Positions 1,701-27,137 of a stretch of DNA of 32,000 nucleotides are shown one piece after another. A program made the position numbers and the translations under genes. Under the pieces are notes generated by a model that searched no databases, had not been told where the DNA came from, and saw nothing but the letters and a program-made list of their open reading frames with translations. This DNA is from Mucisphaera calidilacus. GTDB taxonomy: Bacteria > Planctomycetota > Phycisphaerae > Phycisphaerales > Phycisphaeraceae. Position 1 is the stretch's first letter. Each line of letters opens with the position of its first letter. The DNA lies in the NCBI RefSeq assembly GCF_007748075.1, contig NZ_CP036280.1, positions 1,680,001-1,712,000 on the forward strand. Reading direction: 5' to 3'.

Positions 1701-1765
1701 AGACGGTCTCCTTGATTCAGAGAAGGCAATGGTCGACAGGAAGCGACAGCACGCGCCGCGACGGA

Positions 1766-2602: not shown

Positions 2603-2604
2603 AT

Positions 2605-7316: not shown

Positions 7317-9560
7317 TCAACAACGCTGCCGCGACGGCTGTCTCCGGATCGCACACCCACTCAGCACCAGGACACTCAGCGAAGAGGGTGCCGGGATCGT
7401 CGGGTCGGAAGAGCTGCTGAAGGTACGCCGCTCACCAAAATGGCTCGCGAGGATCGACAGATCCAGCAGGTCTACCCTCTGATCGCCATTGAAATCGCCA
7501 TCCGACCACGTGTAAAGACCAGGCCGGTTGTAACTCGACGCGAGAATAGAGAGATCAAGAAGATCGACCTTCCCGCTCTCGTTCGCGTCGCCGGGAATCG
7601 GCGGAATCGTCACCAGCACGTCGCGATTCACGCCCGCCCACGCATAGAACGCAGCTAACTCCGCCGTGTAGCCACTTAAATCCATGAAAGGCAGATCACC
7701 CTCGTTGCCGTAGAAGGGACTATCCTCGGCAGGCAGAAAGACGAGCCTCGCCATATCCTGAAATCGTGGATCAGCGAACGTCGGATCGATCTCCTCGCTC
7801 CCATTCGTAGCCAGAAACGCCAACCATTCCTCAAGAGTCCCCTCGCCGTAGTTGAAACCGCTGTTCTTACGCCACGCGAACGCCTTGTCCGGGTTCTCTG
7901 CAAAGTACGTGTTGCCGATGCCAGTCCAGCCATGCTGAGCCGCTGCCCAGAGATCCGGGTAAGTGGACGCATTGAACTGGTTGTGATTGTTGACCGCCGC
8001 GGCCTCGCCCTCGCCGTAGACAATCGAGTCTTCGACCGTCAGGGGGCCCGGACGATAGAACTCACCAGTGACGTTCGATCGGCCACGACCATACGATACG
8101 AAGTAGACCGCATCACTGTTCCGATCAGGGCCGCCGAGAATAATGCTGTCCGAGATCGTCACGTCCTCAGCCATCAGCGACCGGACCGACGCATCGCCCT
8201 CATCGGGCATGGCCAGAAGAGCACGCTCGATGGTGAACGGGCCCTGACTGATTTCGAGGAACAGGTTCCGTGTGTTGTAGACACTGACCAGATCCTCGAT
8301 CACCACGTCCTGAACGTCAATATCAAACCACAGCCCCGCACCCACATTACCGATGACCTCCAGATCACGGATGCGAACACCCTCCATACTGGCCCACTTC
8401 ATACCCCCAGTGTACCACCCGGGCTGACCACCAAGAGCCCCGTCACGCCAGTTGTTGTAATTGGCGGTATTACTTTCGTAAACAACGTCCGACGCCTTCT
8501 GAAGGCTGAAACCCTGCGAGCCGTTGTAATCGAAGTGCGAGTTGCGAACCGTCACGCCCGAGACATTCTCAATCCGGATGCCCTCAGCGGAATTCCAGCG
8601 GCTGGTCACCCCGTCAAAGAGAATATTGGAACTCAGGCTGTTCGGATTGCTCTGAAACCCGTCAAAGATGATCACGCCCTCACGGTCCTGACCCCCGCTC
8701 GTACGGGTGACGTGGTTGGCAGCGTGCTGGAAGGTCAGATTGCGGAAGGCGATCTGATCCTTGCCGTTCATCTCAAAGAGCTTGCTGCGCGTCGAAGCCT
8801 CAACCAGAGCGTCAGCGGGATTCGCGTTCTCGGGCAGACGCACGTACAGGCGGTCACCCCAGGCATGATCGCTACGTTCCGCGACACCGAACTGACCCGG
8901 CTGCAACGTCGTCGTCGGGTTCACGACACCGGTGTACGTCCAGCGGCTCTGCCCCGACCCATCGTTCGCAAAGTCGTACTGCTCGATCAGAGCCGGACGC
9001 AGCGCCGACCCGTTCACGATGACCTGCTCCGCGCGGTGCGCGAGAACAGAATCGTCCGGCGCGTAGCCCGCCTGCCAGTAAGTGTCGTTCCCGATGTTGT
9101 GCGTCCAAGGCGTCGAATAGACCCCGTTGCCCTCGTATTGCCAGCCGGTCATCACGTCGGCGCCGCTGATCACGACGCCCGGCCCGGAGCCCTCGATCAG
9201 CAGCGGCGTGTTCTTGCGGTTCGCGCTGCTGTTGACCCAGAGATGACTGCCCATGCTCTGCCGGTACGTGCCCGGATGAATCAGAACCCGGGCCCCAATG
9301 CCCGCGTCGAGATCGTTGCGGGCCCGCAGGATCGCCGACTCAATCGAGCCGAAAGGATCACCCTCGCTGCCGGTCGTGCCCGGCGATGTCGAACCATGGA
9401 TATCAACGTGGTACGTGTTCACGATCGCCGACGCGTTGAAGTTCGCGCCATCAACAACCGCATCGGCTTGCCCCGATACGCAGCCCAACGCGAACAGCGC
9501 AAACACAAACACGCCACGCCGGGTCGCTGCCTTCAGATCATGCACGTCGGATCGATTCAT
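7317..9560 (-). CDS. Secreted right-handed beta-helix protein with a C-terminal dockerin-type repeat pair and a PEP-CTERM-like sorting signal
   Basis: I chose the ATG at 9560 because GGAGAA lies 6 nt upstream. The signal peptide is MNRSDVHDLKAATRRGVFVFALFALGCVSGQADA. Beta-helix motifs include GTYRQ, IEGSG, RNSHFDYNGSQG, NNWRDG, GGMKW and YNTRNLFLEI. The C-terminal tail reads GDANESGKVDLLDLSILASSY...GDFNGDQRVDLLDLSILASHF followed by IPAPSSLSVLVLSGCAIRRQPSRQRC. Confidence 0.8.
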   Translation of the reverse strand: MNRSDVHDLKAATRRGVFVFALFALGCVSGQADAVVDGANFNASAIVNTYHVDIHGSTSPGTTGSEGDPFGSIESAILRARNDLDAGIGARVLIHPGTYRQSMGSHLWVNSSANRKNTPLLIEGSGPGVVISGADVMTGWQYEGNGVYSTPWTHNIGNDTYWQAGYAPDDSVLAHRAEQVIVNGSALRPALIEQYDFANDGSGQSRWTYTGVVNPTTTLQPGQFGVAERSDHAWGDRLYVRLPENANPADALVEASTRSKLFEMNGKDQIAFRNLTFQHAANHVTRTSGGQDREGVIIFDGFQSNPNSLSSNILFDGVTSRWNSAEGIRIENVSGVTVRNSHFDYNGSQGFSLQKASDVVYESNTANYNNWRDGALGGQPGWYTGGMKWASMEGVRIRDLEVIGNVGAGLWFDIDVQDVVIEDLVSVYNTRNLFLEISQGPFTIERALLAMPDEGDASVRSLMAEDVTISDSIILGGPDRNSDAVYFVSYGRGRSNVTGEFYRPGPLTVEDSIVYGEGEAAAVNNHNQFNASTYPDLWAAAQHGWTGIGNTYFAENPDKAFAWRKNSGFNYGEGTLEEWLAFLATNGSEEIDPTFADPRFQDMARLVFLPAEDSPFYGNEGDLPFMDLSGYTAELAAFYAWAGVNRDVLVTIPPIPGDANESGKVDLLDLSILASSYNRPGLYTWSDGDFNGDQRVDLLDLSILASHFGERRTFSSSSDPTIPAPSSLSVLVLSGCAIRRQPSRQRC
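7320..7592 (-). repeat. Domain-level module: dockerin-type EF-hand repeat pair (7437-7592) plus PEP-CTERM-like tail (7320-7397, PAP variant)
   Basis: The segment VDLLDLSILAS occurs twice, each time preceded by a D-x-N-x-(D/S)G loop. The tail is IPAPSS, a hydrophobic stretch, then an Arg-rich end. Confidence 0.75.
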
Positions 9561-9623
9561 GGTTGTTCTCCAGAACACAAGAGGCAACATCAACACCGTC
9601 TCAGCACCAGCGCCAAGCCACGC

Positions 9624-10589
9624 TCACCACTCCCGGCAGGCCCGCATCAGGTCATCCATCTGCGCGATGGCAACACACTGAACATAGTCAGCACCGCCGT
9701 AATAAAGCTTCACCGAACCGTCAGGCTCAACGATCTGTGAACACGGGAAGCAGACGTGCTCGACGTGACCGGTCATCTCGTAATCAGCCTCAGGCCAGAG
9801 CACGGGATACTTCGTCACGTGCCTGACCTTCCAGGGCTCGTCCCTGTCCAGGATCGCGGCACCGACCGTGTACTCACGCGTCGTGGCGTTATTCATGATG
9901 GCATGGAAACACATCAGCCACCCCTCATCCGTGAGGTAGGGGACCGTCGACGGACCCAGACCCGCATCGCAATACAGCGGCATATCGGTGTTACGCAGCA
10001 CCTCGTAGCTATCGCCCCAGTGAACAAGGTCGGGCGAGAAGCTCATCCAGATGTTGCCCTTGCCGCCCGCGCTGGCGAGATTCGGACGCTCGAGCCGGAT
10101 GTACCGACCGTCCGCCGTCTTCCCGGGAAACAGCACCATGTTGCGGTTGTCGGGCGCGTTGAACCAGTGCGAGAACGTCAGCGTCTCCAGGTCGGGCGAC
10201 GTAAAACAGGCCACACGCGTCTCGCGCGGATTCTGGCAGGCCACCAGAACCTTGTACTCGTCGTCGATCCACGTGATACGCGGATCGTAGTAAACCAGCG
10301 ATGCCGCGTAATCCCACTCGGGCGTGTCCGGAACCTTGTAAGGCTGATCACGCAGCTTCCAGCTCAGGCCGTCGTCAGAATCGGCCGGCCACATCAGCGT
10401 CTCCATGTTCACCTGATTGCAACGGGTGATCATGATGTAAGGCGAACGAGCGTTCTTGTGCTCGGTCTTCACAGCACTGCTGTTGTAGACCGAACGCATA
10501 CGCCAGGGAAAATCCCGATGCGTGAGAACCGGGTTGTTCTCGTAGCGTCGAAAGACTTCGTGATCGATGGGGATGACCGGCCAGCTCAA
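9624..10589 (-). CDS. Glycoside hydrolase family 130 protein (beta-mannoside phosphorylase/hydrolase family), short form
   Basis: The 321-aa product has the motifs YENNPVL, VYNSSAV, NRNMVLFP, GLGPST and a C-terminal KLYYGGAD, which are typical of GH130 five-bladed propellers. No signal peptide is present. The start is a TTG at 10589, with AAGGA 9 nt upstream. Confidence 0.75.
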   Translation of the reverse strand: MSWPVIPIDHEVFRRYENNPVLTHRDFPWRMRSVYNSSAVKTEHKNARSPYIMITRCNQVNMETLMWPADSDDGLSWKLRDQPYKVPDTPEWDYAASLVYYDPRITWIDDEYKVLVACQNPRETRVACFTSPDLETLTFSHWFNAPDNRNMVLFPGKTADGRYIRLERPNLASAGGKGNIWMSFSPDLVHWGDSYEVLRNTDMPLYCDAGLGPSTVPYLTDEGWLMCFHAIMNNATTREYTVGAAILDRDEPWKVRHVTKYPVLWPEADYEMTGHVEHVCFPCSQIVEPDGSVKLYYGGADYVQCVAIAQMDDLMRACREW

Positions 10590-10615: not shown

Positions 10616-11983
10616 CTAAATATGAACAATCTCTCCGGGACGCGGGATGCCCCCGACACCCTCGCGCAGAGCGTCCTCCGTCCGATCCATCCACCCTTCC
10701 AGAGCCTCAACGAGCTCACGGTAGGTCGCCTCGTAACCCGCTTCACCCGCAACATTCTCACGCTCATACGGATCACGACGCAGGTCAAATAGCATGTCGA
10801 ACGCCCGCACACCCTCACCCGATGCCGCCTCCACCGGCGTAGCCTCAGCGATGTAATCCAACGCACCCGCCGACTCCATCGCGTCATGGATCGGCCGACG
10901 GTCCCAGTTGCTGCGCACGGCGTCCACATCGGTCCACCACCGCCGGATCAGCTTGTAATCACGCGTCCGCACGCAACGCTCCGGCTGCGGGCCGCCGTGG
11001 ATGTTCAATTCCGCAAAGACGTGCTCGTGGATCGCGTCGGTCTCATGCTTCACCAACGGCATCAAAGACGCGCCCTCGAGCCAGTCGGGCCGCGGAACGC
11101 CGCACGCCTCGCAAAGCGTCGGGTACAGATCCAGGTGCGTCACCATCCCCTCGATCTGCCCGGCTCCATCAAAACCCGGGCCGCTGATCATGAGCATCAC
11201 CTCGAGACCACCATCGCGAAGACTGCACTTGTGAAGCGGCAGGCTCACACCGTGATCCGTCGTCACGACAAGAATCGTGTTCTCCGACATGTTGAGCCGG
11301 TCTAACGTCCGCACGATCTTGCCGACCGCCGTATCAAAACGGGCCACCAGAACATTGTGATGCGCCTGCCAGAGCCTGGCCTCGGGCGAGTCCGCAAGCC
11401 CCGCCGGCACACCCGCCACCTCGATGTCCGCTTCGGCAGGCACGTACTTCTTCTCAAGCGATCGCCACGAACCGACATGCGTCTCGATGAAACCGACGTC
11501 CAGGAACCAGGGCTCATCACTCTGCCGATGGTCGTGCAGCCAACGCACCACGTCAGGCGTCAACGCGCTCGTCAGACGCACCGGATCGTTCTCACCCGCA
11601 TAAGCCTGCGGCCGCGTGATCGCCTCGCGCACCTCACGGTATCCCAGCTCCACCTCACTGCGATGCAGGTGCTGGACCCCGAGGATCGCCGTGTGATAGC
11701 CCGCGTCACGGAAGGCCCATGCCATCGCCCGCTGCGGGTTGGGCAACTCGTAGCCCAGATTCGCAAGACCCCACTGGCCGCACTGATGCGGGTACTGTCC
11801 CGTCAGCAGGCCCGCACGGCTCGGCGAGCAGGTCGGGCCCACGCAGAAAGCGTTCCCGAAGGTCGCGCCACGATCGGACAGAGCCTGCAGGTTCGGCGAG
11901 AAGACGTCGTGCCCATAAGGCTGCACACGCCGACCCGTATCGTGCGTATGCATGTAGATGACGTTCGGCCGCGACGCGCTCAT
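10616..11983 (-). CDS. Cys-type sulfatase (formylglycine-dependent, S1 family), no signal peptide
   Basis: The 455-aa product begins MSASRPNVIYMHTHD and carries the C-x-P-x-R motif CSPSRAGLLTG. The segment TTDHG lies downstream. Its ATG overlaps the stop of the upstream fucosidase (ATGA at 11980-11983). Confidence 0.9.
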   Translation of the reverse strand: MSASRPNVIYMHTHDTGRRVQPYGHDVFSPNLQALSDRGATFGNAFCVGPTCSPSRAGLLTGQYPHQCGQWGLANLGYELPNPQRAMAWAFRDAGYHTAILGVQHLHRSEVELGYREVREAITRPQAYAGENDPVRLTSALTPDVVRWLHDHRQSDEPWFLDVGFIETHVGSWRSLEKKYVPAEADIEVAGVPAGLADSPEARLWQAHHNVLVARFDTAVGKIVRTLDRLNMSENTILVVTTDHGVSLPLHKCSLRDGGLEVMLMISGPGFDGAGQIEGMVTHLDLYPTLCEACGVPRPDWLEGASLMPLVKHETDAIHEHVFAELNIHGGPQPERCVRTRDYKLIRRWWTDVDAVRSNWDRRPIHDAMESAGALDYIAEATPVEAASGEGVRAFDMLFDLRRDPYERENVAGEAGYEATYRELVEALEGWMDRTEDALREGVGGIPRPGEIVHI

Positions 11984-13356
11984 GACGCACCCCCACGGTC
12001 ACCAAGCGCCGTCTCGGGCTCCAGCCGGATCTCGAGCGTCACCACGCTGTCATCATCGCCGCAGTGACGCGGCATCATCACCGTCCACTCGTCCGGCTTG
12101 CGACTCAGATGTGAGCCCCGAACAAAACGAACGTCCGAACCGTCATCCATCAGCGTGATACGGGCGATCCTGTAGCCATCCATCGCGGGCAACGAGAGCA
12201 ACCCGTCAACCGACGAACGCAGCACGTGCGCATACAACGTGTCCCCACGCTGCGTATACGCCACACGCCACTTGAAGCTGTCCGTAAACCAGCGGTGAAC
12301 CGGCTCGCCACGACTCGAGATCACCATCGGACCCGTGCCGTAGACACTCTCCCCCTGCCGGCTCAGCCAGCGACCCGTGCCCCGCAGCACGTCGCCATAC
12401 CACGGCTCCGGAAACTCGCCACGCGCCGTCGGCCCGATATTCAGCAGCAGATTGCCACCCTTCGAGGCGATCTCCGCAATGCTCTCCATCACCGCACGCG
12501 GGCTGCGGTACGACCGATCGTCCCGGCAGTAACCCCAGTGCTCGTTGAGACACATGCAACTCTCCCACCGGACCGGACGACCCGACGCGTCACGAAGACC
12601 CCGCGGAGGAATCTTGTTCTCCGGCGTGATGATGTCAGGCAGCAGATCCGGATCCTCGATCTCAGCGTCACCCAGCACCAGCCTGTCATTCACCAGGATG
12701 TCTGGCTGCAACGCTCGGATACGACGCATCAGCCGCGCGCCGTCGTACGCCTCCGCGCCGGCTCGCCGAACATCAAACCAGAGCAGGTCAATCTTGCCGT
12801 AGCCCGTCAGCAACTCCTCAACCTGACCGTGCAGGTACGCAATCCCCGCTGCGCTCGGCCGCCACGCATCCGGATCCTCACTGAACCCCGCGTGACCCTC
12901 GGCATCAATCCCCGCCATCCCACCGTCCAACCCCGCGTGCCAGAGGTCCCAGATCGAATAGTAAACACCAAAACGCAAGCCGACCGCACGCACCGCATCC
13001 GCAACCTCGGCAACTACATCCCTGCCCAGAGGCGTGCGGGTAACCTTCCAGTCGGTGTGCCGCGAATCAAACATGCAGAAGCCGTCGTGATGCTTCGCCG
13101 TCAGAACGACATACTTCGCTCCCGACGCAGCGACCTGCTCTGCCCAGGCCTCGGGATCAAAACGGTCCGCAACAAAACGCTCCGCGTAACCGCGATAAAC
13201 CTCCTTCGGCACAGCGTCGCGATAGATCTCCCACTCGCCCCGAGCCGAAACCGCGTATACCCCCCAGTGGATGAAAATCCCAAAACGCGCATCGTCAAAC
13301 CATGCCTGTCCGGGCCTAGGCGTCGCGGTGCGAGGGCAGGGGACCGAATCACTCAT
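11980..13356 (-). CDS. Alpha-L-fucosidase, glycoside hydrolase family 29
   Basis: The 458-aa product has the motifs FGIFIHWGVYAV, KYVVLTAKHHDGFCMFDS and GGNLLLNIGP. No signal peptide is present. Its start overlaps the stop of the upstream GH130 gene (ATGA at 13353-13356). Confidence 0.9.
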   Translation of the reverse strand: MSDSVPCPRTATPRPGQAWFDDARFGIFIHWGVYAVSARGEWEIYRDAVPKEVYRGYAERFVADRFDPEAWAEQVAASGAKYVVLTAKHHDGFCMFDSRHTDWKVTRTPLGRDVVAEVADAVRAVGLRFGVYYSIWDLWHAGLDGGMAGIDAEGHAGFSEDPDAWRPSAAGIAYLHGQVEELLTGYGKIDLLWFDVRRAGAEAYDGARLMRRIRALQPDILVNDRLVLGDAEIEDPDLLPDIITPENKIPPRGLRDASGRPVRWESCMCLNEHWGYCRDDRSYRSPRAVMESIAEIASKGGNLLLNIGPTARGEFPEPWYGDVLRGTGRWLSRQGESVYGTGPMVISSRGEPVHRWFTDSFKWRVAYTQRGDTLYAHVLRSSVDGLLSLPAMDGYRIARITLMDDGSDVRFVRGSHLSRKPDEWTVMMPRHCGDDDSVVTLEIRLEPETALGDRGGAS

Positions 13357-14504
13357 AGCGTCACTGCCGCTCCTGCCCCGGCCGGCGCTGACAGACCGGA
13401 CACGTCAACACGCTCGCCAGGCTTGGGCGACGCCGCCGCAACAGCGATATAGGAATCGGCCGTGCCGTAGTAGATCAGCCATTGACCTCGGTGAAACACC
13501 AGCCCCTCGATAAACGTCACCTTGCCGATCTGCCCCTCCAGCTCGTAAGGCTGATCCGGCTTGATAAACGGCTCATCGGCCCGGTCCAGCATCCGGGTCG
13601 GATCGTTCGCGTCAAAGAGAGCCTGCACCCCGGCCCAGACATTACCGAACGGCGGCCCCTCAGGCGTCGGCACACGCTCCTGCTCCGGCAGCGGATTCGA
13701 GATGCCGTTGTACATAACCACGATCCCGTGCTCGGTCAGAATCGCAGCGGCACCCCCCTCCACAGCAAGATTATCCGTCGCGCTGTACCGCTCCTCAGGC
13801 CGGGGCCCCATCACCACCAGGTCACGGCCATCCTCGTCCAGCACACGCTCCCAGTGAATCAGATTGTCCGACACCGCGACACGCAGCTGCTCGACGCCCC
13901 AGTACATCCAGTACTTCCCGTTGATCCGCGTCGCCACCAGCCGATCATCCACCAGCCGCGAAACGATCTTGCCCGCCTTGAAACCCACACCCCCCTGACG
14001 CTCGCCATCAAGACCCGCCATCAGACCGTGCTTGGTCCAGTGCAACAGATCACGCGACGTCGCCAGGCACTGCTTGCCCGAAATCACGCCGTTGTACGCG
14101 TTGTACGTCATGTAATAAGTCCGGTCCTCGTCCTCGACAATACGCGGATCCTCAACGCCGCCCTCACGCTCGAAACACAAGAAGCTGTCGTTGTCCGGGT
14201 ACAGCACCGGACAACTGTGCCGCTCGAAAGTAATGCCGTCCTCACTCACCGCCAGACCGATCCGCGACGTCCCCTTGTACCTGCCCACGTGATCCTCAGC
14301 CCGATACAAAAGATAGACCCTGCCGTGACGCGTCACCGCGCAGGGGTTGAACACGTCCTTCGCCTCCCAGTCAACAAGCTCCTCGCGCACCGGGCAATAG
14401 AAACGCGTCGACGGCTCCGGCCCCATGATCGGGTTGACCGCATGGCACTTCTCAAAAGGACCGATCTGCCATTCAGGATAGCTAGACAAAACGAACTCCT
14501 GCAT
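13353..14504 (-). CDS. Glycoside hydrolase family 130 protein, long form
   Basis: Motifs include VFNPCAV, TSRIGLAVSEDGITFER, GGVEDPRIV, YYMTYNAY, LATSRDLLHWTK and IYYGTAD. I preferred the ATG at 14504 (MQEFVLSSYPEW) because it lies 4 nt after the upstream stop. The track start at 14564 would overlap the upstream gene. Confidence 0.75.
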   Translation of the reverse strand: MQEFVLSSYPEWQIGPFEKCHAVNPIMGPEPSTRFYCPVREELVDWEAKDVFNPCAVTRHGRVYLLYRAEDHVGRYKGTSRIGLAVSEDGITFERHSCPVLYPDNDSFLCFEREGGVEDPRIVEDEDRTYYMTYNAYNGVISGKQCLATSRDLLHWTKHGLMAGLDGERQGGVGFKAGKIVSRLVDDRLVATRINGKYWMYWGVEQLRVAVSDNLIHWERVLDEDGRDLVVMGPRPEERYSATDNLAVEGGAAAILTEHGIVVMYNGISNPLPEQERVPTPEGPPFGNVWAGVQALFDANDPTRMLDRADEPFIKPDQPYELEGQIGKVTFIEGLVFHRGQWLIYYGTADSYIAVAAASPKPGERVDVSGLSAPAGAGAAVTL

Positions 14505-14508
14505 CACG

Positions 14509-16563
14509 CTACGGACGCCCGGCCGCATCGGCCTCGCCCATGCTCGCATCTTCAACACGCACACGCCGGCAGGAAGGGTCGACGATCACCGGCCCCTCAC
14601 CATTCACGACATCCGGCGCTGCCGCATCATATTGATTGTCACGAACAACACTGTCACGCATACTGAACAGACGCACGCTGAAACCCGTGGTGTTCACAAA
14701 ACGATTACCCGCGATCTCGATATCCGCGATGTAAGGCGGGCCGTAGTGATAACGCTCACCCGGATAATCCACCGTCGCATTGATGCCGTGCGTCGCCTCA
14801 AAGGTATTGTCAATCATCCGCACGTTACGCGGCGCATACGCCTCCTGCCACGTCAGCCGCATCAGCAGCGAGACCGCCACGCCCGCATTCCGATCAAAAT
14901 GATTCCCCGCCACAAGACCGTTCGACGCCTTGAGCTTGATCCCGTTCACCGAGTTCTCGCCCAGCACCGAATCACGCATCACAAACCCGTCGCACTTCGT
15001 CTGCAGATTCGCCACCATCACCTCAAGCGGCTCGTCCGGAGCGCACATGTAAAACTCCATGTTGGAGAACACCGCGTGCGTCTTGCCCAACGACTCACGC
15101 GTCCGCAGCACCGGAAGCGGGCCGTCCAGCTTCACGCCCACCCGACGAAACCCACGCCACGTCCGCTCAGACACACCCGTGATCACCGGCGTGCCAACCG
15201 TCCCTCCCGTCATCGGATCGATCACCGCGAGCTGATCACCCACACGGAAGTGCCGACGGTCCGGCTGCCAGTTCACCGAACGATCCGACGGATCAAACGC
15301 ACTGTCCAGCACAAGCTCCGTCGCCGACGGCTGATCGTCGACCGACACCGCCTTGCAATACAGGTTCGACGAGTCGTCAAAATTACGGAGGATCCGGCAA
15401 TCCTGAATCCACGGCCCCACGCGCTGGGAGATGATGTGCAGACCGTCCGCGTTCGAGATCGCCAGCCGATCCGTCCCCGGCTTCGGCTCGCACACACAAC
15501 CGAGCAGCCGAACGTCGGTGTCCGCCGTTAACTGCCACGTGTGCGTCCACGCCGCATACACCGCGACACGCTCGAACGTCAGACGCGTGTTCCCCGCCGT
15601 CCACACCGCAGGCTGATGCCCCGGCACATTGCGACTCTGAATCGTCAGCGGATGACCCGGCCGGAACGTCTCCGGCAGATCTCGACCCGTCTCCCACGCC
15701 TGCTTCTTCCCGTGAAGAACAAAACGTTCTTCATCCAGCGGCTCAACCCGGGCCACGGTGAACCCGCCATGCCCCAGCACACGCCCCGTCTCCGGGCAGT
15801 GCGGCTTGGCACCGACATGCACCGCAAACACCGTCGGATCGCCGCCGACATCAAACGGAAAACCGGTCGGCGAAGGCCAACCCGCCTGACGACGCCACGT
15901 CACACTGAAGTCCTCAGGATGAATCGACTCGATCACGCCCTGCGTGAAAGGCAGCGGGTCGAAATCAAGACTCAGGTCAGCAACACGCACGTCCGCACAA
16001 TCCTCGATACGCAGCAGCGTGCCGATCTCCGTGCCCACCAACTCGGTCCTGCCGATGCCCTCGCCACGGATCGTGACGTCCTTCAACCCCTCCAGCAGCA
16101 GGTGCGTCCGACGAGGCGTGCCCCCAAAGCCATCAATCCGGTACGTGCCCGCCGGCAGCAATAATTCAGCCCCAGGCCCCGCCTCCGCCAGAGAGGCAAC
16201 AGCCCGGCGAAGGGCCGGGCCGTCGTCGTGGAGGTTGTCACCAACAGCGCCGAAATCACGCACGTTCAGCGTGACTGTCGGCCCGCCGATCTCGACCTCC
16301 CGAAGCGCCGCCCGTATCGCCGCTTCCAGGTTCTCACGGATCACCGCGTACTCACGCGGCCGAATCGAAGCCTCCATCGACGCCAGCGGCTCATCCGACC
16401 GGCCGTCATGACCCGCGATCAAACCCTCAAGCCGATTCAGGATGCTGACCTGATCCTCAAAATAAGGGACGGCGGGGTGACCTTCTTCGCGGATCCGTTC
16501 AAAGGCGCCAACAATCTCAGCAGACATCGGGACCGGTAGCGTCGACATACTCATACAACTCAT
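14509..16563 (-). CDS. Cytoplasmic right-handed beta-helix protein (Pectate_lyase_3-like N-terminal beta-helix signature)
   Basis: The segment LNVRDFGAVGDNLHDDGPALRRAVASL...LLLPAGTYRI is the classic start of tailspike/GH28/GH55-type beta-helices. No signal peptide is present. I placed the start at 16563 (MSCMSMSTLPV) because the longer track ORF, which reaches 16845, overlaps the upstream gene. The start is uncertain by a few codons. Confidence 0.65.
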   Translation of the reverse strand: MSCMSMSTLPVPMSAEIVGAFERIREEGHPAVPYFEDQVSILNRLEGLIAGHDGRSDEPLASMEASIRPREYAVIRENLEAAIRAALREVEIGGPTVTLNVRDFGAVGDNLHDDGPALRRAVASLAEAGPGAELLLPAGTYRIDGFGGTPRRTHLLLEGLKDVTIRGEGIGRTELVGTEIGTLLRIEDCADVRVADLSLDFDPLPFTQGVIESIHPEDFSVTWRRQAGWPSPTGFPFDVGGDPTVFAVHVGAKPHCPETGRVLGHGGFTVARVEPLDEERFVLHGKKQAWETGRDLPETFRPGHPLTIQSRNVPGHQPAVWTAGNTRLTFERVAVYAAWTHTWQLTADTDVRLLGCVCEPKPGTDRLAISNADGLHIISQRVGPWIQDCRILRNFDDSSNLYCKAVSVDDQPSATELVLDSAFDPSDRSVNWQPDRRHFRVGDQLAVIDPMTGGTVGTPVITGVSERTWRGFRRVGVKLDGPLPVLRTRESLGKTHAVFSNMEFYMCAPDEPLEVMVANLQTKCDGFVMRDSVLGENSVNGIKLKASNGLVAGNHFDRNAGVAVSLLMRLTWQEAYAPRNVRMIDNTFEATHGINATVDYPGERYHYGPPYIADIEIAGNRFVNTTGFSVRLFSMRDSVVRDNQYDAAAPDVVNGEGPVIVDPSCRRVRVEDASMGEADAAGRP

Positions 16564-16606: not shown

Positions 16607-17431
16607 TCAGCGCTGGGGCCAAAAGACGTCGATCCGCGGGTAGTCGTCTCGGGTGGCATCACGAGGCGGACGACCGTCTCGCGGGCTATCGATGGTGACC
16701 GTCCAGAGGTCGATGGTCTCAGCAACCGTGTCATCTTCGTTGCCGAGCACCTCACGCGCCTTACTCTCGGCGTGACCGTCAAAGAACAAGGCGTTCGTTG
16801 TCTCGCCGGGATGACGGTACGCAACCCCGCCACCGTTCTCTTCATCGATGTACTTATGCCTGTTGTTGAATGTATTCTGGAGCTCGCGTCCCCCTCCTGG
16901 CTCCATGTTGGTGTTGAAGTCGGTGAAGCTCACAGAGTCGGCGGGCGACAGAATCATGTACTTCGGGAAGGCCCGAAAGAATGCACCGCCACCAAATGGA
17001 TAAACGAAACGCAGGTTGGTACTGTTCGGGTAGTAAATATCACCGACGAAGGCGTCATCCGGCCCCAGTTCCTCGGGCTCCGCCGACGGGCAGATAAAAT
17101 CTGAGGGCCACGAATCCCAGGTGGTCGAGTCAACCTTATTGGGAATCAGGTTGCGTTTAAAATCCGGGTTCGTATACCAAAATGTCACGCTGGTGTCATC
17201 GGACATCCTGTAGGCGACAGGAACCGCAAGCTCATCCCAATCCAGGGAGTACGCCGCGTCGGCGATACCAAATTGACGCAGGATGCTCGAGCACTGGATC
17301 TTGCGTGCTGTCGAACGTGCCGCACCGAGCGCCGGCAGCAGAATACCGATCAGCAACGCAATAATCGAAATCACGACCAGGAGCTCGATGAGAGTGAATC
17401 CGCCGAAACGATGAGGGTGTGCGTGTGTCAT
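16607..17431 (-). CDS. Prepilin-type N-terminal cleavage/methylation protein of the DUF1559 family (pseudopilin-like)
   Basis: The protein begins [39 protein letters not shown], which contains the G/FTLIEL prepilin peptidase site. The segment [12 protein letters not shown] follows, and the C-terminal region has [14 protein letters not shown], an H-X9-DG-like motif with spacing 10 here. I chose the ATG at 17431 because GAGG lies 6 nt upstream. Confidence 0.85.
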
Positions 17432-17504
17432 GGCAACCTCTGCAGGGAAAAGGGCTGTTGCGTCCCGGCCATCCGGGGCCTGGGACAACTGGTTTCAAAG
17501 GGCC

Positions 17505-17526
17505 CGGCGGCAATGTCTTGCCGCCG
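17505..17526 (-). terminator. Candidate intrinsic terminator hairpin downstream of the PEP-CTERM gene
   Basis: The stem is a perfect 9 bp, CGGCGGCAA-tgtc-TTGCCGCCG, about 160 nt past the stop at 17683. On the minus strand it is followed only by gggcccTTTgaaa, so the U-tract is weak. Confidence 0.35.
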
Positions 17527-17682
17527 AACCGGGTGTATGTGGGGCTGATCCCCGACGGGCTCAGGCGGGAGGCCGTGTGCCACGCCGACCATCCAATCGA
17601 CGCGACGATGAGCGGAGGAAAGTCTCATCAATCCTCGGACTCACACCGGGCCTCCTCAGGGACAGCACCCGTGGCGAGATCA

Positions 17683-18627
17683 TCAGGCCATCCGCCGTCC
17701 GGCAACCAGAACGCCCAGACCCAGCAGGCTCAGAGCCGCCGGCTCCGGAGCCGCCGCGCCGGAGTCGAAGTTCGACGCCAGGATCGACAGGTCCAGCAGA
17801 TCAACGAATCCGTCCTCGTTGAAATCACCCTCAGCAACCGTGTAAGGCGTCTCAGTACCCTCGAAGTTGCTCGCGAGAATCGACAGGTCAAGCAGATCGA
17901 CCAGGCCGTCGCCGTTCGCGTCGCCGGGAACCGACGTCACCGGAGCGATCTCAACCTGGATACCCTCGACGTAGTAAGCGCGGTAGTCATTCGGATACCA
18001 GTCGAAGAAGATCAGTTCCGTGCCGGTCGGGATGAGGAGGTCTCCGACCGTGAACTCGTCGACACTGGCGTTGTCATTCGCGCCAACGTTGATGCCATCG
18101 GGATCAAGGTTGCCCACGTAGCTGTAGCCTTCGGGCGCAGGATCAATCCGAACACCATTATCGTAGTACTCAATCGCCGCACCCGAGTTCACATACGTCT
18201 CGATGTCGCCAACACGGAAAGCCGCACCGTCAAGACCACTGCCGACAAAGCGGTAGTCCACAAACTTGAGCAGAACGTCCTGATCGAACGTCAGACGCAG
18301 CTCCTCGTAACCCGCGATCTGGCGGTCAGCGGGCGCGCCGGCCGTGCTGCCCGTGCCCTTGCCCGACACGCCGATGCCCGTGGCGTCCCAGGGCTTGTCG
18401 GCCACACTGCCGTTGGCACTGCTGATGACCTCGGGAACATCATTCCCCTCATCATCTTCGTCAAACGCAGCGATGGTCAGCGTAACGCCGCCCTCCACCA
18501 GCACCAGAGCGTCCGTGGTCGTCGGGTCCGCATCCAGAGCAAAACTGAAATCAATCACAGCGGAAGCAGTCTGGGTCGATGCAAGCAGTGCACCGGCAAC
18601 GAGCGAAGCAGTTGTGAAGCGTGACAT
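17683..18627 (-). CDS. Surface protein with an unknown N-terminal domain, a dockerin-type repeat pair and a PEP-CTERM sorting signal
   Basis: The ATG at 18627 is preceded by a perfect AGGAGG. The signal peptide is MSRFTTASLVAGALLASTQTASA. A domain of about 210 aa follows in which I recognise no motif. The tail reads GDANGDGLVDLLDLSILASNF...GDFNEDGFVDLLDLSILASNF followed by APEPAALSLLGLGVLVAGRRMA. Confidence 0.8.
   Translation of the reverse strand: MSRFTTASLVAGALLASTQTASAVIDFSFALDADPTTTDALVLVEGGVTLTIAAFDEDDEGNDVPEVISSANGSVADKPWDATGIGVSGKGTGSTAGAPADRQIAGYEELRLTFDQDVLLKFVDYRFVGSGLDGAAFRVGDIETYVNSGAAIEYYDNGVRIDPAPEGYSYVGNLDPDGINVGANDNASVDEFTVGDLLIPTGTELIFFDWYPNDYRAYYVEGIQVEIAPVTSVPGDANGDGLVDLLDLSILASNFEGTETPYTVAEGDFNEDGFVDLLDLSILASNFDSGAAAPEPAALSLLGLGVLVAGRRMA
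17686..17925 (-). repeat. Domain-level module: dockerin-type repeat pair (17767-17925) plus canonical PEP-CTERM tail (17686-17751)
   Basis: The pair is GDANGDGLVDLLDLSILASNF and GDFNEDGFVDLLDLSILASNF. The tail is PEP, then ALSLLGLGVLVAG, then RR. Confidence 0.8.
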
Positions 18628-19888: not shown

Positions 19889-19916
19889 AATGTAACCGAG
19901 AACATAGCCGTGTCAA
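19889..19916 (-). promoter_or_regulatory. Candidate sigma70-type promoter of the lacI-led operon
   Basis: The minus strand reads TTGACA (19916-19911), a 16-nt spacer, then TACATT (19894-19889). This lies about 105 nt upstream of the lacI ATG, in the only A/T-rich stretch near it. Planctomycete promoter rules are poorly known. Confidence 0.35.
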
Positions 19917-20314: not shown

Positions 20315-22021
20315 TCAATCCGCCTCTAGTGGCAGAACGTAAACCGTCACCGATCGGGCCGGCACCACGTCCCCGAAACGATCTTCATGATCTACAACCA
20401 CATCATCATCAAGGATTTGCGCTGCATCGGTCTCCGCCAGCGGCTCCTCGTTCGCCACCATCCGACGCAGCACCGCCGACCCGCGACGCAGCACCAGGCC
20501 ATCCAGCCGCCAGACCACCTCCAGAGCCACATCGAATGAACGATTAATCACATGAATATAGAGATTTTCATCATCACGGGTTACAACCGAATCAATCAGA
20601 GCCAGCGACGGCTGCATACGGATCTTGTTCACGTGCAGGTCCTGCGTCACCTGCGGAATCTCGCTCACCGCCCGGGTCTCCAGGCGACGGTCGCCGTGGT
20701 TTCGACTGTAAAGCGATGTAGCTAAAGCCGTTGGGTGAATCCACGACTTACCCGTCTCAAGATCCATGAAGACACCCGAGAGCTGCCAGCTCACACCAAG
20801 CATCATCGACTGAGTCGCAAAGTCGATGTCGCCGCCCTGTCGCATCATGCCGTGCAGATAGCCGGCGGCGCCAAGCCCCCTGCCAAGAAAGCAAAGCGGC
20901 ACATCTATTTCCGTTCCCTTGCCCCAGCCGTTCCAGTTCCACTCGGTCAGCACCACGCCGTAGCCGGCCTTCTGGATCTCCGCGATCTTCTCGGGCTGGA
21001 TCGCAAGTGTTTGCCCCTCCGAATCATAGAACGATGGCATCGTCACCCAGCTGTACCAGAGTCGGATCAGCCCGACGTCCTCCGCCTCGACCTCGGTGGC
21101 TCCGCCATCCGTGCTGAGCGTGCGGATCCGCCAGGGCTGGTAGTGATGAACCGTCAGCCGGTCCACGCGCTGGGCCACACGCGGGTCCGACCACACCCGG
21201 CGGGCCATGTCCTTGTCGCGCATACCGTGGTCCAGGATGATCCTGATGTCCGGGTCGACGGCGCGCATCGCGTCGGCGTAGACGACCACGGCGTCGGCGA
21301 TCCGATCGCCCATGGCATCGATCTCCGCGCGGGAGGGGTCCGTTGCGAAGAACCTGCGGAGGAATACGAAGATCTCGTTGCCGATCTGCCAGTGCTTCAC
21401 GCGGTAGGGTTCGTGCCGTCCGTTGGCGGCGCGGATGGCGGGCCAGTCGATCATGCCCTGGGGTAACTGCTGCCCGAGCGGGGTGTTGCAGTAGGCGACC
21501 TGTCCCGCGGCGTGTCGTGCCGCGGTCTCCAGATCGACGCCGCCGAGCACGCCGTCGTAGAGGTTGACCACGAGCATCGGTTCCCATCCAAGTTGTTCGC
21601 TGAGTCGGAAAAACTCGTCGTAGCCGAAGCGGTTGTTGAGCGGCTGGCTGGCGGGGTTGTCCTGTGGGGTGACGACGGGCCGTGCGGGGAGGCCGCGTGG
21701 CGGGGCGCGGTCGATGCGGTGGGTCCAGTCGGTGTAGGGGATGTCGCCTCCGCCGGGGAAGCGGACGAGGGGCGCGTTGAGCAAGTCGAGTTTCTCGATG
21801 ATTTCGTTGGGTAATTCGCCGGTTTCGGGGTCGGCGATGGCGTCGGGTCCGGGCTCGCCCCAGCTGGCGATTTCCATGAAGTGGCCGAAGAGTCTCGGGT
21901 CGATGCGGTTGAGGGTGTGGTCGGTGACCTGAAACTCGACGCGTTGCGCGCAGCCGACTGAGGTCAGCAGGAGCGTGAGCGCGATGATGAGAAGCGGGCT
22001 GATGATGGGGTTTCGATTCAT
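20315..22021 (-). CDS. Lipoprotein glycoside hydrolase, clan GH-A, GH51-like (alpha-L-arabinofuranosidase-like)
   Basis: The 568-aa product has a lipobox-type signal LLLTSVGCAQ. The segments RIDPRLFGHFMEI, LVRFPGGG, NRFGYDEFFRLSEQLGWEPMLVVN, VAYCN and HWQIGNEIF follow the order of GH51 signature blocks, with the GNE acid/base region last. The family call is by eye only. Confidence 0.55.
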   Translation of the reverse strand: MNRNPIISPLLIIALTLLLTSVGCAQRVEFQVTDHTLNRIDPRLFGHFMEIASWGEPGPDAIADPETGELPNEIIEKLDLLNAPLVRFPGGGDIPYTDWTHRIDRAPPRGLPARPVVTPQDNPASQPLNNRFGYDEFFRLSEQLGWEPMLVVNLYDGVLGGVDLETAARHAAGQVAYCNTPLGQQLPQGMIDWPAIRAANGRHEPYRVKHWQIGNEIFVFLRRFFATDPSRAEIDAMGDRIADAVVVYADAMRAVDPDIRIILDHGMRDKDMARRVWSDPRVAQRVDRLTVHHYQPWRIRTLSTDGGATEVEAEDVGLIRLWYSWVTMPSFYDSEGQTLAIQPEKIAEIQKAGYGVVLTEWNWNGWGKGTEIDVPLCFLGRGLGAAGYLHGMMRQGGDIDFATQSMMLGVSWQLSGVFMDLETGKSWIHPTALATSLYSRNHGDRRLETRAVSEIPQVTQDLHVNKIRMQPSLALIDSVVTRDDENLYIHVINRSFDVALEVVWRLDGLVLRRGSAVLRRMVANEEPLAETDAAQILDDDVVVDHEDRFGDVVPARSVTVYVLPLEAD

Positions 22022-22221
22022 GGTGTGTGCTCTAGAAGGTGGACGAAACGGTGGCGATTCTGGTCTACGGCGGCCATGTTACCGATTACAGCCTGCGCGG
22101 CTATCGGGGCGTTGTTGGTGGTCCGTGGATCGCGACTTTCGGGCGTGACGCCATCGCGTTCAGCGCACGTTATGCTCTGGTCTTGCCCCCCAGGTCCCAC
22201 CCACTCGCGGAGCAGGAAAGC

Positions 22222-25600: not shown

Positions 25601-27028
25601 TCAGCATACGTGGGTGAGGTCGCTGTTGCGACGCCCTCCCGGGCGTAGCGATGTCGGTTCGATGATGGTCGGCGTGGGTTCGTTCAGTTGCTCCATCCAC
25701 GCGAGGAGGCGCGAGCGCATGTGGTCACGGACGTGGGTGAAGCTGTCGTAGTCCAGCAGGTTGTTGAGTTCGTAGGGGTCGTACTCGAGGTCGTAGAGCG
25801 CGGTTTCCCGGTAGGTGTCGCTGTGCATGGCTGAGGGGTCGTGCTCGGGTGCTTCGACGATGTATTTCCATCGCCGGGTGCGTACCGCGCGTGCGGTTCC
25901 GCTTTCGCTGATTTGTATGTAGACGCTGTCGGGTCGTTGCGTGGCGGGGTCTGTGTCGCGTCTGACCAGTGGCATGAGTGAGTGTCCCTGCATGGTCTGT
26001 GGTATGTCGATGTCGCAGGCGTCGAGGAGTGTTGGGGGCAGGTCGATGAGGCTGACGAGTTCGTCGATTCGTCCTGCGCCTGTGAACGGGCCGCCGTGGA
26101 GCATCGCGGGCACACGGATGGAAGCCTCGTGTCCGGATCGTTTGTATTCGGCGTTGCGGGTTTTGAAATGGTTGCCGTGGTCGGAGGTGAAGAGGACGAT
26201 GGTGTTGTCGAGGATACCGAGTGACTTGAGTGCGTCGGCGACGCGTCCGAGTGCCTCGTCGAGTCGTCGCACCATGCCGCAGTAGCCGGCGAAGTGCTGC
26301 TGTGTCGACCCGCCTGTGACGGCCTGGGGTTGGAATGTTGCTTGTTCGTGTGTTGGCAGTGCGGCGAGGTCTGGTGGGCACCATCGGCCGAGGTATCGTT
26401 GTGCGTAGCCGTCGGGTGCGGGGTAGCTGTCGGTGTCGTTCTGGTGATGGGGCTCGATGAAGGACCCCATCATGAAGAAGGGTTGATCGGGGTTTGTCTG
26501 CGTGTGGTCGTTGACCATGCGTATGAGTGCGTCGGCGACGGCGTCGGATCGGTAGCCGGGCAGGGTGACCGGCTGGTTGTCGTTGTCGTAGAGGATCGTT
26601 TTGTATTCGTGGACGGAGAATTCGAGGGCTTCGGTGCCGAGCCATGTCTGGTATCCGCCGCGTGCTGATTCGGGGACGACCTGTTCGCCGCGCGGCTCGC
26701 CGCTGAGGTGCCACTTGCCGACGTAGCCGGTGTGGTATCCGGCCTTGTTGAAGCATTCGGCGAGGCTTGGCAGGTCGGGGTTGAGGCCGATGCCGTTGCG
26801 GTAGGTGCCGTTGGTCGTGGCGTAGGTGCCGGTCTGGAGGCAAGCCCGAGCCGGTCCGCAGAGCGGCTGGCAGCTGAAGGTATTGTGCACGTCGGTCCCG
26901 CGTCGTGCGAGTCGGTCGAGGTTTGGCGTGAGGTCGAGCGGGCAGCCGTGGACGCCCGTGACGTCGTGTCGCTGCTGGTCGGTGAAGAAGATGAGGACGT
27001 TGTGGGGGCGTCGCGTCTGCATGGCCAT
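25601..27028 (-). CDS. Cys-type sulfatase, no signal peptide
   Basis: The 475-aa product begins MAMQTRRPHNVLIFFTDQQRHD and carries the motif CGPARACLQTGTY (C-x-P-x-R). Downstream segments are YVGKWHL and FTSDHGN. It lies 33 nt upstream of the DUF2264 gene on the same strand. Confidence 0.9.
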   Translation of the reverse strand: MAMQTRRPHNVLIFFTDQQRHDVTGVHGCPLDLTPNLDRLARRGTDVHNTFSCQPLCGPARACLQTGTYATTNGTYRNGIGLNPDLPSLAECFNKAGYHTGYVGKWHLSGEPRGEQVVPESARGGYQTWLGTEALEFSVHEYKTILYDNDNQPVTLPGYRSDAVADALIRMVNDHTQTNPDQPFFMMGSFIEPHHQNDTDSYPAPDGYAQRYLGRWCPPDLAALPTHEQATFQPQAVTGGSTQQHFAGYCGMVRRLDEALGRVADALKSLGILDNTIVLFTSDHGNHFKTRNAEYKRSGHEASIRVPAMLHGGPFTGAGRIDELVSLIDLPPTLLDACDIDIPQTMQGHSLMPLVRRDTDPATQRPDSVYIQISESGTARAVRTRRWKYIVEAPEHDPSAMHSDTYRETALYDLEYDPYELNNLLDYDSFTHVRDHMRSRLLAWMEQLNEPTPTIIEPTSLRPGGRRNSDLTHVC

Positions 27029-27098
27029 AAGCTACACGAGGGCAAAACGCCTCGCAGCGGGGGATCCCGGGCAGCCGTCGTGCGTGTTGCACGGCGGA

Positions 27099-27104
27099 TA
27101 TAAT
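27099..27104 (+). promoter_or_regulatory. Perfect TATAAT hexamer, candidate -10 for the S51/dockerin gene
   Basis: The hexamer lies 34 nt upstream of ATG 27138, within the 109-bp divergent intergenic region. I found no convincing -35. An imperfect inverted repeat CCGTCGTGC-gtgtt-GCACGGCGG (27075-27097) abuts it. Confidence 0.25.
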
Positions 27105-27137
27105 GGTTGGGCTACGGTCATCCATGTGAGAAGCTGT

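Follow-up and report, generated by a model that had tools for sequence, protein, structure and literature searches.

What could an anchored surface protein and a pilin-like protein be doing at the head of a sugar-regulated catabolic operon? This question is raised by a stretch of 32,000 nucleotides (nt) from the marine planctomycete Mucisphaera calidilacus (Phycisphaerae, Planctomycetota; contig NZ_CP036280.1, positions 1,680,001 to 1,712,000), called the window in the following. Here, the gene of a LacI-family regulator is followed directly by the gene for an exported protein of 314 amino acids (aa; gene 1) and then by the gene for a 274-aa prepilin, type IV pilin-like or pseudopilin-like, of the DUF1559/H-X9-DG kind (gene 2); both products are 100% identical to records of this species. 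Together with the subsequent genes for carbohydrate-active enzymes (CAZymes), a sulfatase and an ATP-binding cassette (ABC) importer the two genes form a single long co-directional row on the minus strand (Table 1), in agreement with the first-pass annotation, which had placed the two genes first after the repressor of a sugar-regulated catabolic operon. Prepilins of the DUF1559/H-X9-DG kind make up one of the phylum's largest paralogous families, to which no function has been assigned. Each part of the locus is of a known kind, namely a type IV pilin-like prepilin, a dockerin, a PEP-CTERM cargo protein and a LacI operon. Judged by gene order, the fixed cassette of regulator, PEP-CTERM gene, prepilin gene and CAZyme genes is a real, conserved and previously undescribed gene association; no description of it, and no functional context for this prepilin family, was found in the literature searched, which omitted most subscription journals. 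We propose, at a probability of roughly 0.45, that genes 1 and 2 encode the exported, non-catalytic, substrate-capture front end of an operon cassette that recurs in the Phycisphaerae.

A regulator-headed cassette with a prepilin recurs in related genomes

Twelve loci were fetched by way of gene 2 homologues, starting with the closest (P0003) and continuing with higher-ranking matches on longer contigs or in named genomes. In ten of them (L001, L002, L003 with two cassettes, L006, L087, L088, L089, L091, L092 and L093), as in the window, the prepilin gene resides in a regulator-headed carbohydrate operon. The order is that of a sugar regulator, none to two small PEP-CTERM proteins, one to four prepilin paralogues and CAZymes. 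The regulators are of the LacI, GntR plus periplasmic binding protein (PBP) or AraC type, and the genes downstream encode CAZymes and sulfatases and, in the window, also the ABC importer. L001 carries the orthologous operon of the window, with identities of 61% for LacI and 46% for the prepilin; the beta-helix protein encoded directly after the prepilin (14509-16563 in the window, 9771-11711 in L001) is 65% identical and occupies the same place. The prepilin of L006 is 39% identical to gene 2, and the three-gene order at the head of that locus matches the window. The conserved core of the cassette is regulator-prepilin-CAZyme. A PEP-CTERM gene stands directly upstream of the prepilin gene in eight loci, including the window.

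The proteins that occupy this PEP-CTERM slot are small (225-314 aa), give no catalytic family matches and vary in their bodies between operons. At least four body families without detectable mutual similarity occur, and the tail alone is shared. A single diverged superfamily in the slot is thus unsupported, as profile-profile comparison finds homology in the tail only. Two weak matches, to F5/8 type C (E 5e-4) and to CBM60 (E 0.06), both remain below the cut-off. The prepilin bodies, in turn, group by the downstream enzyme set: one group comprises the window, L001, L006 and the second cassette of L003, the other L088, L091 and L092. L087 and L093 belong to one genome and are diverged duplicates of the whole cassette. 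L087 (3264-9723) is also the largest cassette seen, with two different PEP-CTERM proteins and a tandem of four prepilins (279, 266, 258 and 279 aa) behind a single LacI gene.

In L004 (6190-8744) and L005 (8001-9721), a prepilin pair on opposite strands lies near AraC, NUDIX, ferredoxin and two to three DUF7453 genes. This context, found in Poriferisphaera corsica and in a Planctomycetota bacterium, is conserved and free of CAZymes, and the prepilin family is therefore not restricted to sugar operons. The co-occurrence of prepilins with sugar operons expected from the first-pass annotation hence holds for ten of the twelve fetched loci, but not for these two.

Regulator adjacency was also controlled in 80 prepilin loci sampled broadly from the Planctomycetes-Verrucomicrobia-Chlamydiae (PVC) group, which came from a genome-contig scan driven by the N-terminal helix and served for this control only. 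In the slot just upstream of the prepilin (about 68 loci), eight Peripla_BP_3-type and four AraC regulators were found; the 25 families listed for the control slot, 6 kb further upstream (41 loci), included none of these regulators. Six of the eleven LacI-like open reading frames (ORFs) in this sample are direct, co-directional upstream neighbours of a prepilin gene.

Gene 2 is predicted to be a pilin-like subunit with a variable body

Gene 2 has the sequence features of a prepilin-peptidase substrate, namely a short basic leader with G/A as its last residue, then F (+1), E (+5) and about 20 hydrophobic residues. The G/FTLIE cleavage site that had been read from the sequence is supported by N_methyl (30.6 bits, cut-off 21.2) and TIGR02532 (22.3 bits, cut-off 16.3). 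The assignment of the body to DUF1559 needs qualification: gene 2 itself stays below the PF07596 cut-off (21.6 versus 23.3 bits, profile positions 2-46 of 268), but many of its homologues carry PF07596, which makes it a divergent DUF1559 relative. No match to TIGR04294 was obtained with NCBIfam at E <= 0.01; the motif itself is present, as RH-X10-DGH. The H-X10-DG spacing, earlier singled out as a variant, is as described but not peculiar, since more sequences of the subfamily have X10 (51 of 97) than X9 (28) or X11 (12). A metagenome scan for the pattern AYRHPGET yielded one confirmed locus.

More than 7,800 relatives of gene 2 were found, the closest 46% identical and most of them from Phycisphaerae or unclassified Planctomycetota. 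An alignment of 97 sequences showed E+5, C47, C114 and H207 to be invariant; position -1 is G or A in 94 and position +1 is F in 96 of them. Mean column conservation falls from 0.95 in the N-terminal part of helix alpha1 (alpha1-N) to 0.26-0.30 in mid-body and reaches 0.55 in the AYRH...FFDGH hairpin. The AlphaFold2 model (predicted local distance difference test, pLDDT, 84.9; predicted template modelling score 0.82) consists of a helix of residues 14-64 and a subsequent beta-sheet. A profile search of PDB sequences matched pilins over the helix only, and Foldseek against 350,542 PDB chains returned type IV pilins only, and these weakly. As no periplasmic-binding-protein fold was recovered from these chains, the 'solute-binding protein' label of PF07596 is unsupported, and the corresponding reading of DUF1559 (SBP_bac_10) was rejected on the model and the Foldseek result. 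E+5 is tied to filament assembly. Gene 2 is therefore, as far as the model goes, best described as a polymerisation-competent pilin-like subunit in which a constant assembly module would carry a variable surface.

With the DUF1559 (PF07596)/H-X9-DG (TIGR04294) proteins of Planctomycetota, Verrucomicrobiota and Lentisphaerota, gene 2 shares the prepilin N-terminus, a length of about 250-300 aa, the C-terminal RH-X(9-11)-DG(H) motif and membership in a large paralogous family; it differs in its PF07596 score, in giving no TIGR04294 match and in belonging to an X10-rich Phycisphaerae subfamily. With the pseudopilins of type II secretion systems (T2SS; GspG/H/I/J/K) and with type IV pilins it has in common the class III signal peptide, F+1, E+5, the hydrophobic alpha1-N and the predicted architecture of alpha1 and beta-sheet body. 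Here, however, the similarity is confined to the N-terminal helix, the body, with double the size of GspG, resembles no solved pilin in Foldseek, and the gene lies in a catabolic operon, not beside assembly machinery. ComP of Neisseria is a DNA-binding, specificity-giving minor pilin. The proposed role of gene 2 would resemble that of such minor pilins, in that a special subunit would give a shared filament its ligand specificity and help bring a macromolecule across the outer membrane.

Gene 1 encodes a putative surface-anchored protein

The ATG of gene 1 lies 7 nt after an AGGAGG ribosome-binding site, and the product starts with the signal peptide MSRFTTASLVAGALLASTQTASA (aa 1-23), so that the secreted domain of about 210 aa and the ribosome-binding site noted before are both borne out (N-terminal domain of about 207 aa; Table 1). 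The earlier dockerin/PEP-CTERM label holds fully for its first half: Dockerin_1 (PF00404) is matched by residues 234-285 with 37.7 bits (cut-off 22.9), and the module contains the duplicated Ca-binding-loop segments DANGDGLVDLLD and DFNEDGFVDLLD. The tail, APEPAALSLLGLGVLVAGRRMA, remains below the PEP-CTERM cut-off of Pfam (PF07589; 16.6 versus 20.7 bits) and does not match TIGR02595, but shows all three elements, a P-E-P motif, a transmembrane helix and a basic cluster at the extreme C-terminus, and hhalign pairs it with bona fide PEP-CTERM tails (probability 81.5%, E 1e-5).

The same composite end, a dockerin-like type I module followed by P-E/A-P, a hydrophobic helix and an Arg cluster, closes three unrelated proteins of the window (17683-18627, minus strand; 7317-9596, minus; 26826-28544, plus), which suggests a generic surface-anchoring device of this organism. 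As in cellulosomal type I dockerins, the Ca-binding-loop segments are duplicated and Dockerin_1 scores above its cut-off; in contrast to those, a membrane-sorting tail follows the module, and no cohesin was seen in the window. The sharing of the unit by three unrelated proteins points to a spacer or anchoring role, not to cellulosome assembly, and the dockerin in these tails may thus serve an exosortase-type anchor as a Ca-binding spacer.

No Pfam or NCBIfam family was matched by the N-terminal domain at E <= 0.01, including any SusD/E/F-like, carbohydrate-binding module (CBM) or lectin family. An exhaustive phmmer search of 1.84e9 representatives returned P0122 and one marginal repeat protein, and word-index searches, started from the single sequence or from a profile of two, gave no further relatives; the domain is nearly an orphan. 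P0122, encoded in L006 within the same LacI, PEP-CTERM, prepilin order, is the only real homologue of the domain (40% identical). In this protein of 225 aa, the domain is joined straight to a canonical PEP-CTERM tail, with no dockerin, and the protein passes both PEP-CTERM models (PF07589, TIGR02595); over its whole length it weakly resembles the exosortase-dependent surface protein XDP1 (22.8 bits, cut-off 125). A structure prediction of the 314-aa protein had been suggested as a way to a CBM or lectin fold. The AlphaFold model, built on a two-row alignment, is all-beta with a pLDDT of 42.6, which is unusable for a fold search and gives no basis for assigning a CBM or lectin fold.

In the classical case, PEP-CTERM genes accompany exopolysaccharide loci. 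With PEP-CTERM/exosortase cargo proteins (TIGR02595; XDP1, NF041927; PepA, NF033554), the slot proteins share the signal peptide, a small, putatively beta-rich body, the P-E-P motif, the hydrophobic helix and the C-terminal Arg cluster. Unlike the classical genes, those described here belong to catabolic operons, where a prepilin gene follows immediately, and in gene 1 a dockerin is inserted before the tail. An indirect hint of an exosortase in the genome is the N-acyl amino acid synthase reported for the M. calidilacus strain, a gene type that has been linked to PEP-CTERM systems.

The two genes are probably transcribed from the LacI promoter

A promoter scan identified a single promoter-like site in the region (Table 1), and an operator-like half-palindrome, ATGTTCTCGGTTACAT, at 19890-19905 overlaps its -10 hexamer. 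At the orthologous LacI promoter of L001, a perfect 20-bp palindrome, TGATGTAACCGGTTACATCA, with the halves TGATGTAACC and GGTTACATCA, is located at 7426-7445, just after a TTGACC-17-TATGAT promoter and before the LacI gene. A scan of the window with an operator pattern derived from this palindrome gave two matches, both copies with three mismatches, where 0.05 are expected. The second site, at 22076-22091, lies in the divergent region between the GH51-like and sulfatase genes (GH, glycoside hydrolase), which suggests that the regulon is wider than the operon. No operator-like site was found before gene 1 or gene 2; this fits their transcription from the LacI promoter, which would be autoregulated.

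The 251-nt spacer between gene 1 and gene 2 is strongly structured (z = -3.19) and includes a GC-rich hairpin, a caveat to the putative co-transcription of the two genes. GC-rich hairpins of 11-13 bp with a weak U-tract are also found after the PEP-CTERM gene and before the prepilin gene in five other loci (Table 1); in the remaining two loci with a PEP-CTERM-prepilin pair, the hairpins are weaker or interrupted. The spacers from the regulator to the next gene and from the prepilin to the next gene have a median best stem of about 7 bp. Within L087, a near-identical hairpin sequence occurs again after the first prepilin gene. No Rfam match was found in the window, and the spacer structure is thus not a known RNA family. 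As a putative partial terminator or 3'-stabiliser, the hairpin could shift expression in favour of the PEP-CTERM protein over the products encoded downstream.

Further features of the operon and the window

Gene 2 is the only prepilin motif in all six frames of the window, and Pfam scans of ORFs of at least 200 aa found no pilus or T2SS machinery gene, as had been stated before, and no exosortase gene. The cytoplasmic GH130, GH29 and sulfatase have no signal peptides, and the same applies to most enzymes encoded 3' of gene 2. The first of these, the beta-helix protein at 14509-16563, gives marginal Pfam matches to Beta_helix and Pect-lyase_RHGA_epim (29.5 bits over 47 residues) and possibly represents an undescribed cytoplasmic family of glycan-active enzymes; the mechanical ORF runs to 16845 and overlaps gene 2, and the real start is at about 16563.

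The ABC importer is atypical. Its solute-binding protein reaches SBP_bac_1 only below threshold, the first permease (2605-4146, minus strand) has 513 aa with a long N-terminal extension, the gene of a tetratricopeptide repeat (TPR) protein (6026-7225, minus strand) is translationally coupled upstream of the solute-binding protein gene, and no ATPase gene was found in the operon. Upstream of the LacI operon and in the same direction, a gene at 20315-22021 (minus strand) encodes a 568-aa protein with a possible lipoprotein-type signal (LLLTSVGC) and no Pfam family; its sole match is a weak, N-terminal one to the arabinofuranosidase ArfA (NCBIfam, 59.8 bits, cut-off 625). Outside the operon, the window codes for a GH51-like lipoprotein, two more sulfatases, a DUF2264 protein, a dockerin-bearing S51-like protein, AraA, an aldolase and a GH1 enzyme.

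Table 1. Coordinates of features in the window and make-up of the related loci
Locus	Feature	Position	Strand	Remark
Window	Promoter-like site TTGACA-16-TACATT	19889..19916	-	Upstream of LacI; only one in region
Window	LacI-family regulator, 361 aa	18698..19783	-	Pfam LacI, Peripla_BP_1, Peripla_BP_3 all above cut-offs
Window	Gene 1, 314 aa	17683..18627	-	Directly after LacI gene
Window	Gene 1, N-terminal domain	17938-18558	-	aa 24-230
Window	Gene 1, dockerin-like module	17773-17928	-	aa 234-285
Window	Gene 1, PEP-CTERM-like tail	17686-17751	-	aa 293-314
Window	Spacer gene 1-gene 2, 251 nt	17432-17682	-	
Window	13-bp GC-rich hairpin GGTTCGGCGGCAA-GACA-TTGCCGCCGGGCC, then CTTTG	17501..17530	-	Inside the spacer
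Window	Gene 2, prepilin, 274 aa	16607..17431	-	
Window	Gene 2, N-terminal features			Leader aa 1-11; cleavage G11|F12; E16 = E+5; alpha1 helix aa 14-64; Cys47, Cys114
Window	Gene 2, AYRH-X10-DGH motif	16775-16813 (H..DG)	-	aa 204-220
Window	Beta-helix protein, 684 aa, candidate glycan-active enzyme	14509..16563	-	Directly 3' of gene 2; no signal peptide
Window	GH130	13353-14564	-	Pfam scan
Window	GH29 fucosidase (alpha-L-fucosidase)	11980-13356	-	Pfam scan
Window	Sulfatase	10616-11983	-	Pfam scan
Window	Second GH130	9624-10589	-	Pfam scan
Window	Secreted beta-helix protein with dockerin and PEP-CTERM-like tail	7317-9596	-	Pfam scan, C-terminal tail
Window	TPR protein	6026-7225	-	Pfam scan
Window	Solute-binding protein, 616 aa	4179-6029	-	Pfam scan
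Window	Two ABC permeases	1766-4146	-	Pfam scan; co-directional row ends at 1766
L001, L002	LacI, prepilin, beta-helix, GH29, sulfatase			
L003, first cassette	LacI, prepilin, GH			
L003, second cassette	LacI, 242-aa protein, PEP-CTERM protein, prepilin, beta-helix, GH5, sulfatase			
L006	LacI-like, P0122, prepilin			
L087	LacI, two PEP-CTERM proteins, four prepilins, large proteins			
L088, L091, L092	GntR+PBP, PEP-CTERM protein, prepilin, GH39, GH38, ..., GH172			
L089	AraC, GH, prepilin			
L093	LacI, PEP-CTERM protein, prepilin, BNR-like protein			
L004, L005	Prepilin outside carbohydrate context			
L003	Hairpin after PEP-CTERM gene	7939-7969		
L006	Hairpin after PEP-CTERM gene	1677-1704		
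L087	Hairpin after PEP-CTERM gene	5960-5989		
L091	Hairpin after PEP-CTERM gene	6899-6928		
L092	Hairpin after PEP-CTERM gene	6927-6952		

Discussion

So far, the gene order suggests a locus resembling a polysaccharide utilization locus (PUL), with a capture or export front end made of pilin-like and exosortase-type surface proteins. If capture is correct, an inducer would free LacI from the operator at its own promoter and the operon would be transcribed. The protein encoded by gene 1 would be exported and anchored at the cell surface, in larger amounts than the products of the later genes owing to the hairpin that follows gene 1. The protein encoded by gene 2 would lose its leader by a cut after Gly11 and join, as a subunit specific to this operon, a pilus or pseudopilus with machinery that would be encoded elsewhere in the genome. 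Close to the anchored beta-helix enzyme, both products would then retain the cognate fucose/mannose-containing sulfated glycan at the envelope, and fragments would pass inwards by way of the binding protein and the ABC transporter to the cytoplasmic GH130, GH29 and sulfatase. A bacterium without SusC/D would in effect gain a front end that captures a specific substrate.

This model fits the published 'fishing rod' hypothesis. In reviews of 2025, fibre uptake of this kind is still a hypothesis; one of them attributes it to 'dedicated pilin-like proteins', and another states that the mechanisms and players of macromolecule uptake are unknown. A proteomic study of a planctomycete reports that growth on fucoidan induced 28 'secretion system' proteins, which may include prepilins of this kind. 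A wider form of the model would have the Phycisphaerae, and perhaps the PVC bacteria more generally, load a shared pilus or pseudopilus with substrate-specific pilin-like subunits from their polysaccharide operons, which together with the PEP-CTERM partner would capture glycan and draw it through the outer membrane. We regard this generalization as doubtful.

Several points weigh against the capture model. Glycan capture by genes 1 and 2 is something that we infer from sequence and position; a CBM or lectin nature of gene 1 is unsupported at the low confidence of its model, and the protein could be an enzyme instead. The checks for filament machinery, prepilin peptidase and exosortase covered 32 kb of the genome. 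The first-pass annotation had taken the two genes for a paired module: the regulator-prepilin placement is indeed conserved in relatives, but L001 and L002 have the prepilin and no PEP-CTERM gene, so that the pair is facultative and gene 1 optional, not required for the role of the prepilin. Moreover, the prepilins of L004 and L005 occur in non-carbohydrate contexts, and the context sample, small and with orthologous loci among its members, amounts to about six to seven independent cassettes. M. calidilacus is also described as having no crateriform structures, which are the basis of the fibre-uptake hypothesis.

A role of the prepilin as secretion adaptor would explain the same data about as well as capture. 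Gene 2 would then be an operon-specific pseudopilin in a T2SS pseudopilus that exports gene 1 and the 7317-9596 beta-helix enzyme, and would not bind glycan. This would agree with the NCBI name of gene 2, 'type II secretion system protein', with the adjacency of prepilin and exported PEP-CTERM proteins in the eight loci, and with T2SS-related proteins induced on fucoidan in another planctomycete. The best partial NCBIfam matches of gene 2 are likewise GspG and GspH, but they cover the N-terminal 45-55 residues only and score far under the cut-offs (26.7 bits versus 88.85 and 80). In L001, L002 and the first cassette of L003, moreover, no small PEP-CTERM gene precedes the prepilin, and most of the enzymes encoded 3' of gene 2 have no signal peptide. 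To our knowledge, there is no T2SS with dozens of cargo-specific pseudopilins, and we consider the adaptor role unlikely. Less likely again is a non-polymerising protein, whose prepilin N-terminus would serve as membrane anchor or sorting signal and whose body would be a periplasmic oligosaccharide binder or sensor working with the ABC importer or the regulator. The operon does have such an importer, but already encodes its own 616-aa binding protein; the predicted long helix and small beta-sheet retrieve pilins only from the PDB; and the invariant E+5 (97 of 97) and near-invariant F+1 are filament-assembly features that would be superfluous in a mere anchor.

The remaining alternatives concern gene 1 and the association itself. 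Gene 1 may be an uncharacterised surface-anchored enzyme, a new CAZyme or esterase, and its place beside the prepilin would then reflect a habit of encoding exported proteins first. The dockerin and PEP-CTERM-like anchor is indeed found on two enzymes of the window as well, the 7317-9596 beta-helix and the 26826-28544 S51-like protein, and a GH in L003 also ends in a PEP-CTERM tail. The chances of this reading appear slim, given that the slot-mates are small, lack catalytic family matches and differ in body from operon to operon, and that their weak matches are to binding modules, not to enzymes. Most improbable is the absence of any functional link. Prepilin genes are numerous in the PVC bacteria (68-74 DUF1559 paralogues per genome are reported in Planctomycetia), so that adjacency could be coincidence or hitch-hiking duplication, and L004 and L005 do lie in unrelated contexts. 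However, the same slot is filled in ten of the twelve sampled loci from divergent organisms, the whole cassette has been duplicated and has diverged within one genome (L087 versus L093), and regulators are enriched immediately upstream of the prepilin, not 6 kb away.

Returning to the capture model, genes 1 and 2 may, by their position only, be likened to SusD/SusE/SusF of Bacteroidota. Like these, they are exported, operon-specific and putatively non-catalytic, they adjoin a regulator and CAZymes, and their bodies vary between loci. Unlike these, they show no sequence similarity to the Sus proteins, the anchor is of the PEP-CTERM type (here with a dockerin) and not lipid, and there is no SusC-like TonB-dependent transporter, import being assigned to an ABC system.

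Planctomycetota are major degraders of marine sulfated polysaccharides, yet lack SusC/D. The fixed position after sugar regulators is new information on the DUF1559/H-X9-DG proteins, and the conserved slot, the co-varying prepilin bodies and the frequent PEP-CTERM partner provide concrete, genetically testable candidates. The cassette also offers a rule for locating, in each polysaccharide locus, the determinants of its specificity. Should the prepilins turn out to be secretion adaptors, they would represent a new way to give a type II system cargo specificity. If filament capture is true, the cassette would be a functional replacement for SusC/D and the molecular basis of 'fishing rod' uptake, and it would provide a first function for the huge DUF1559/H-X9-DG family.

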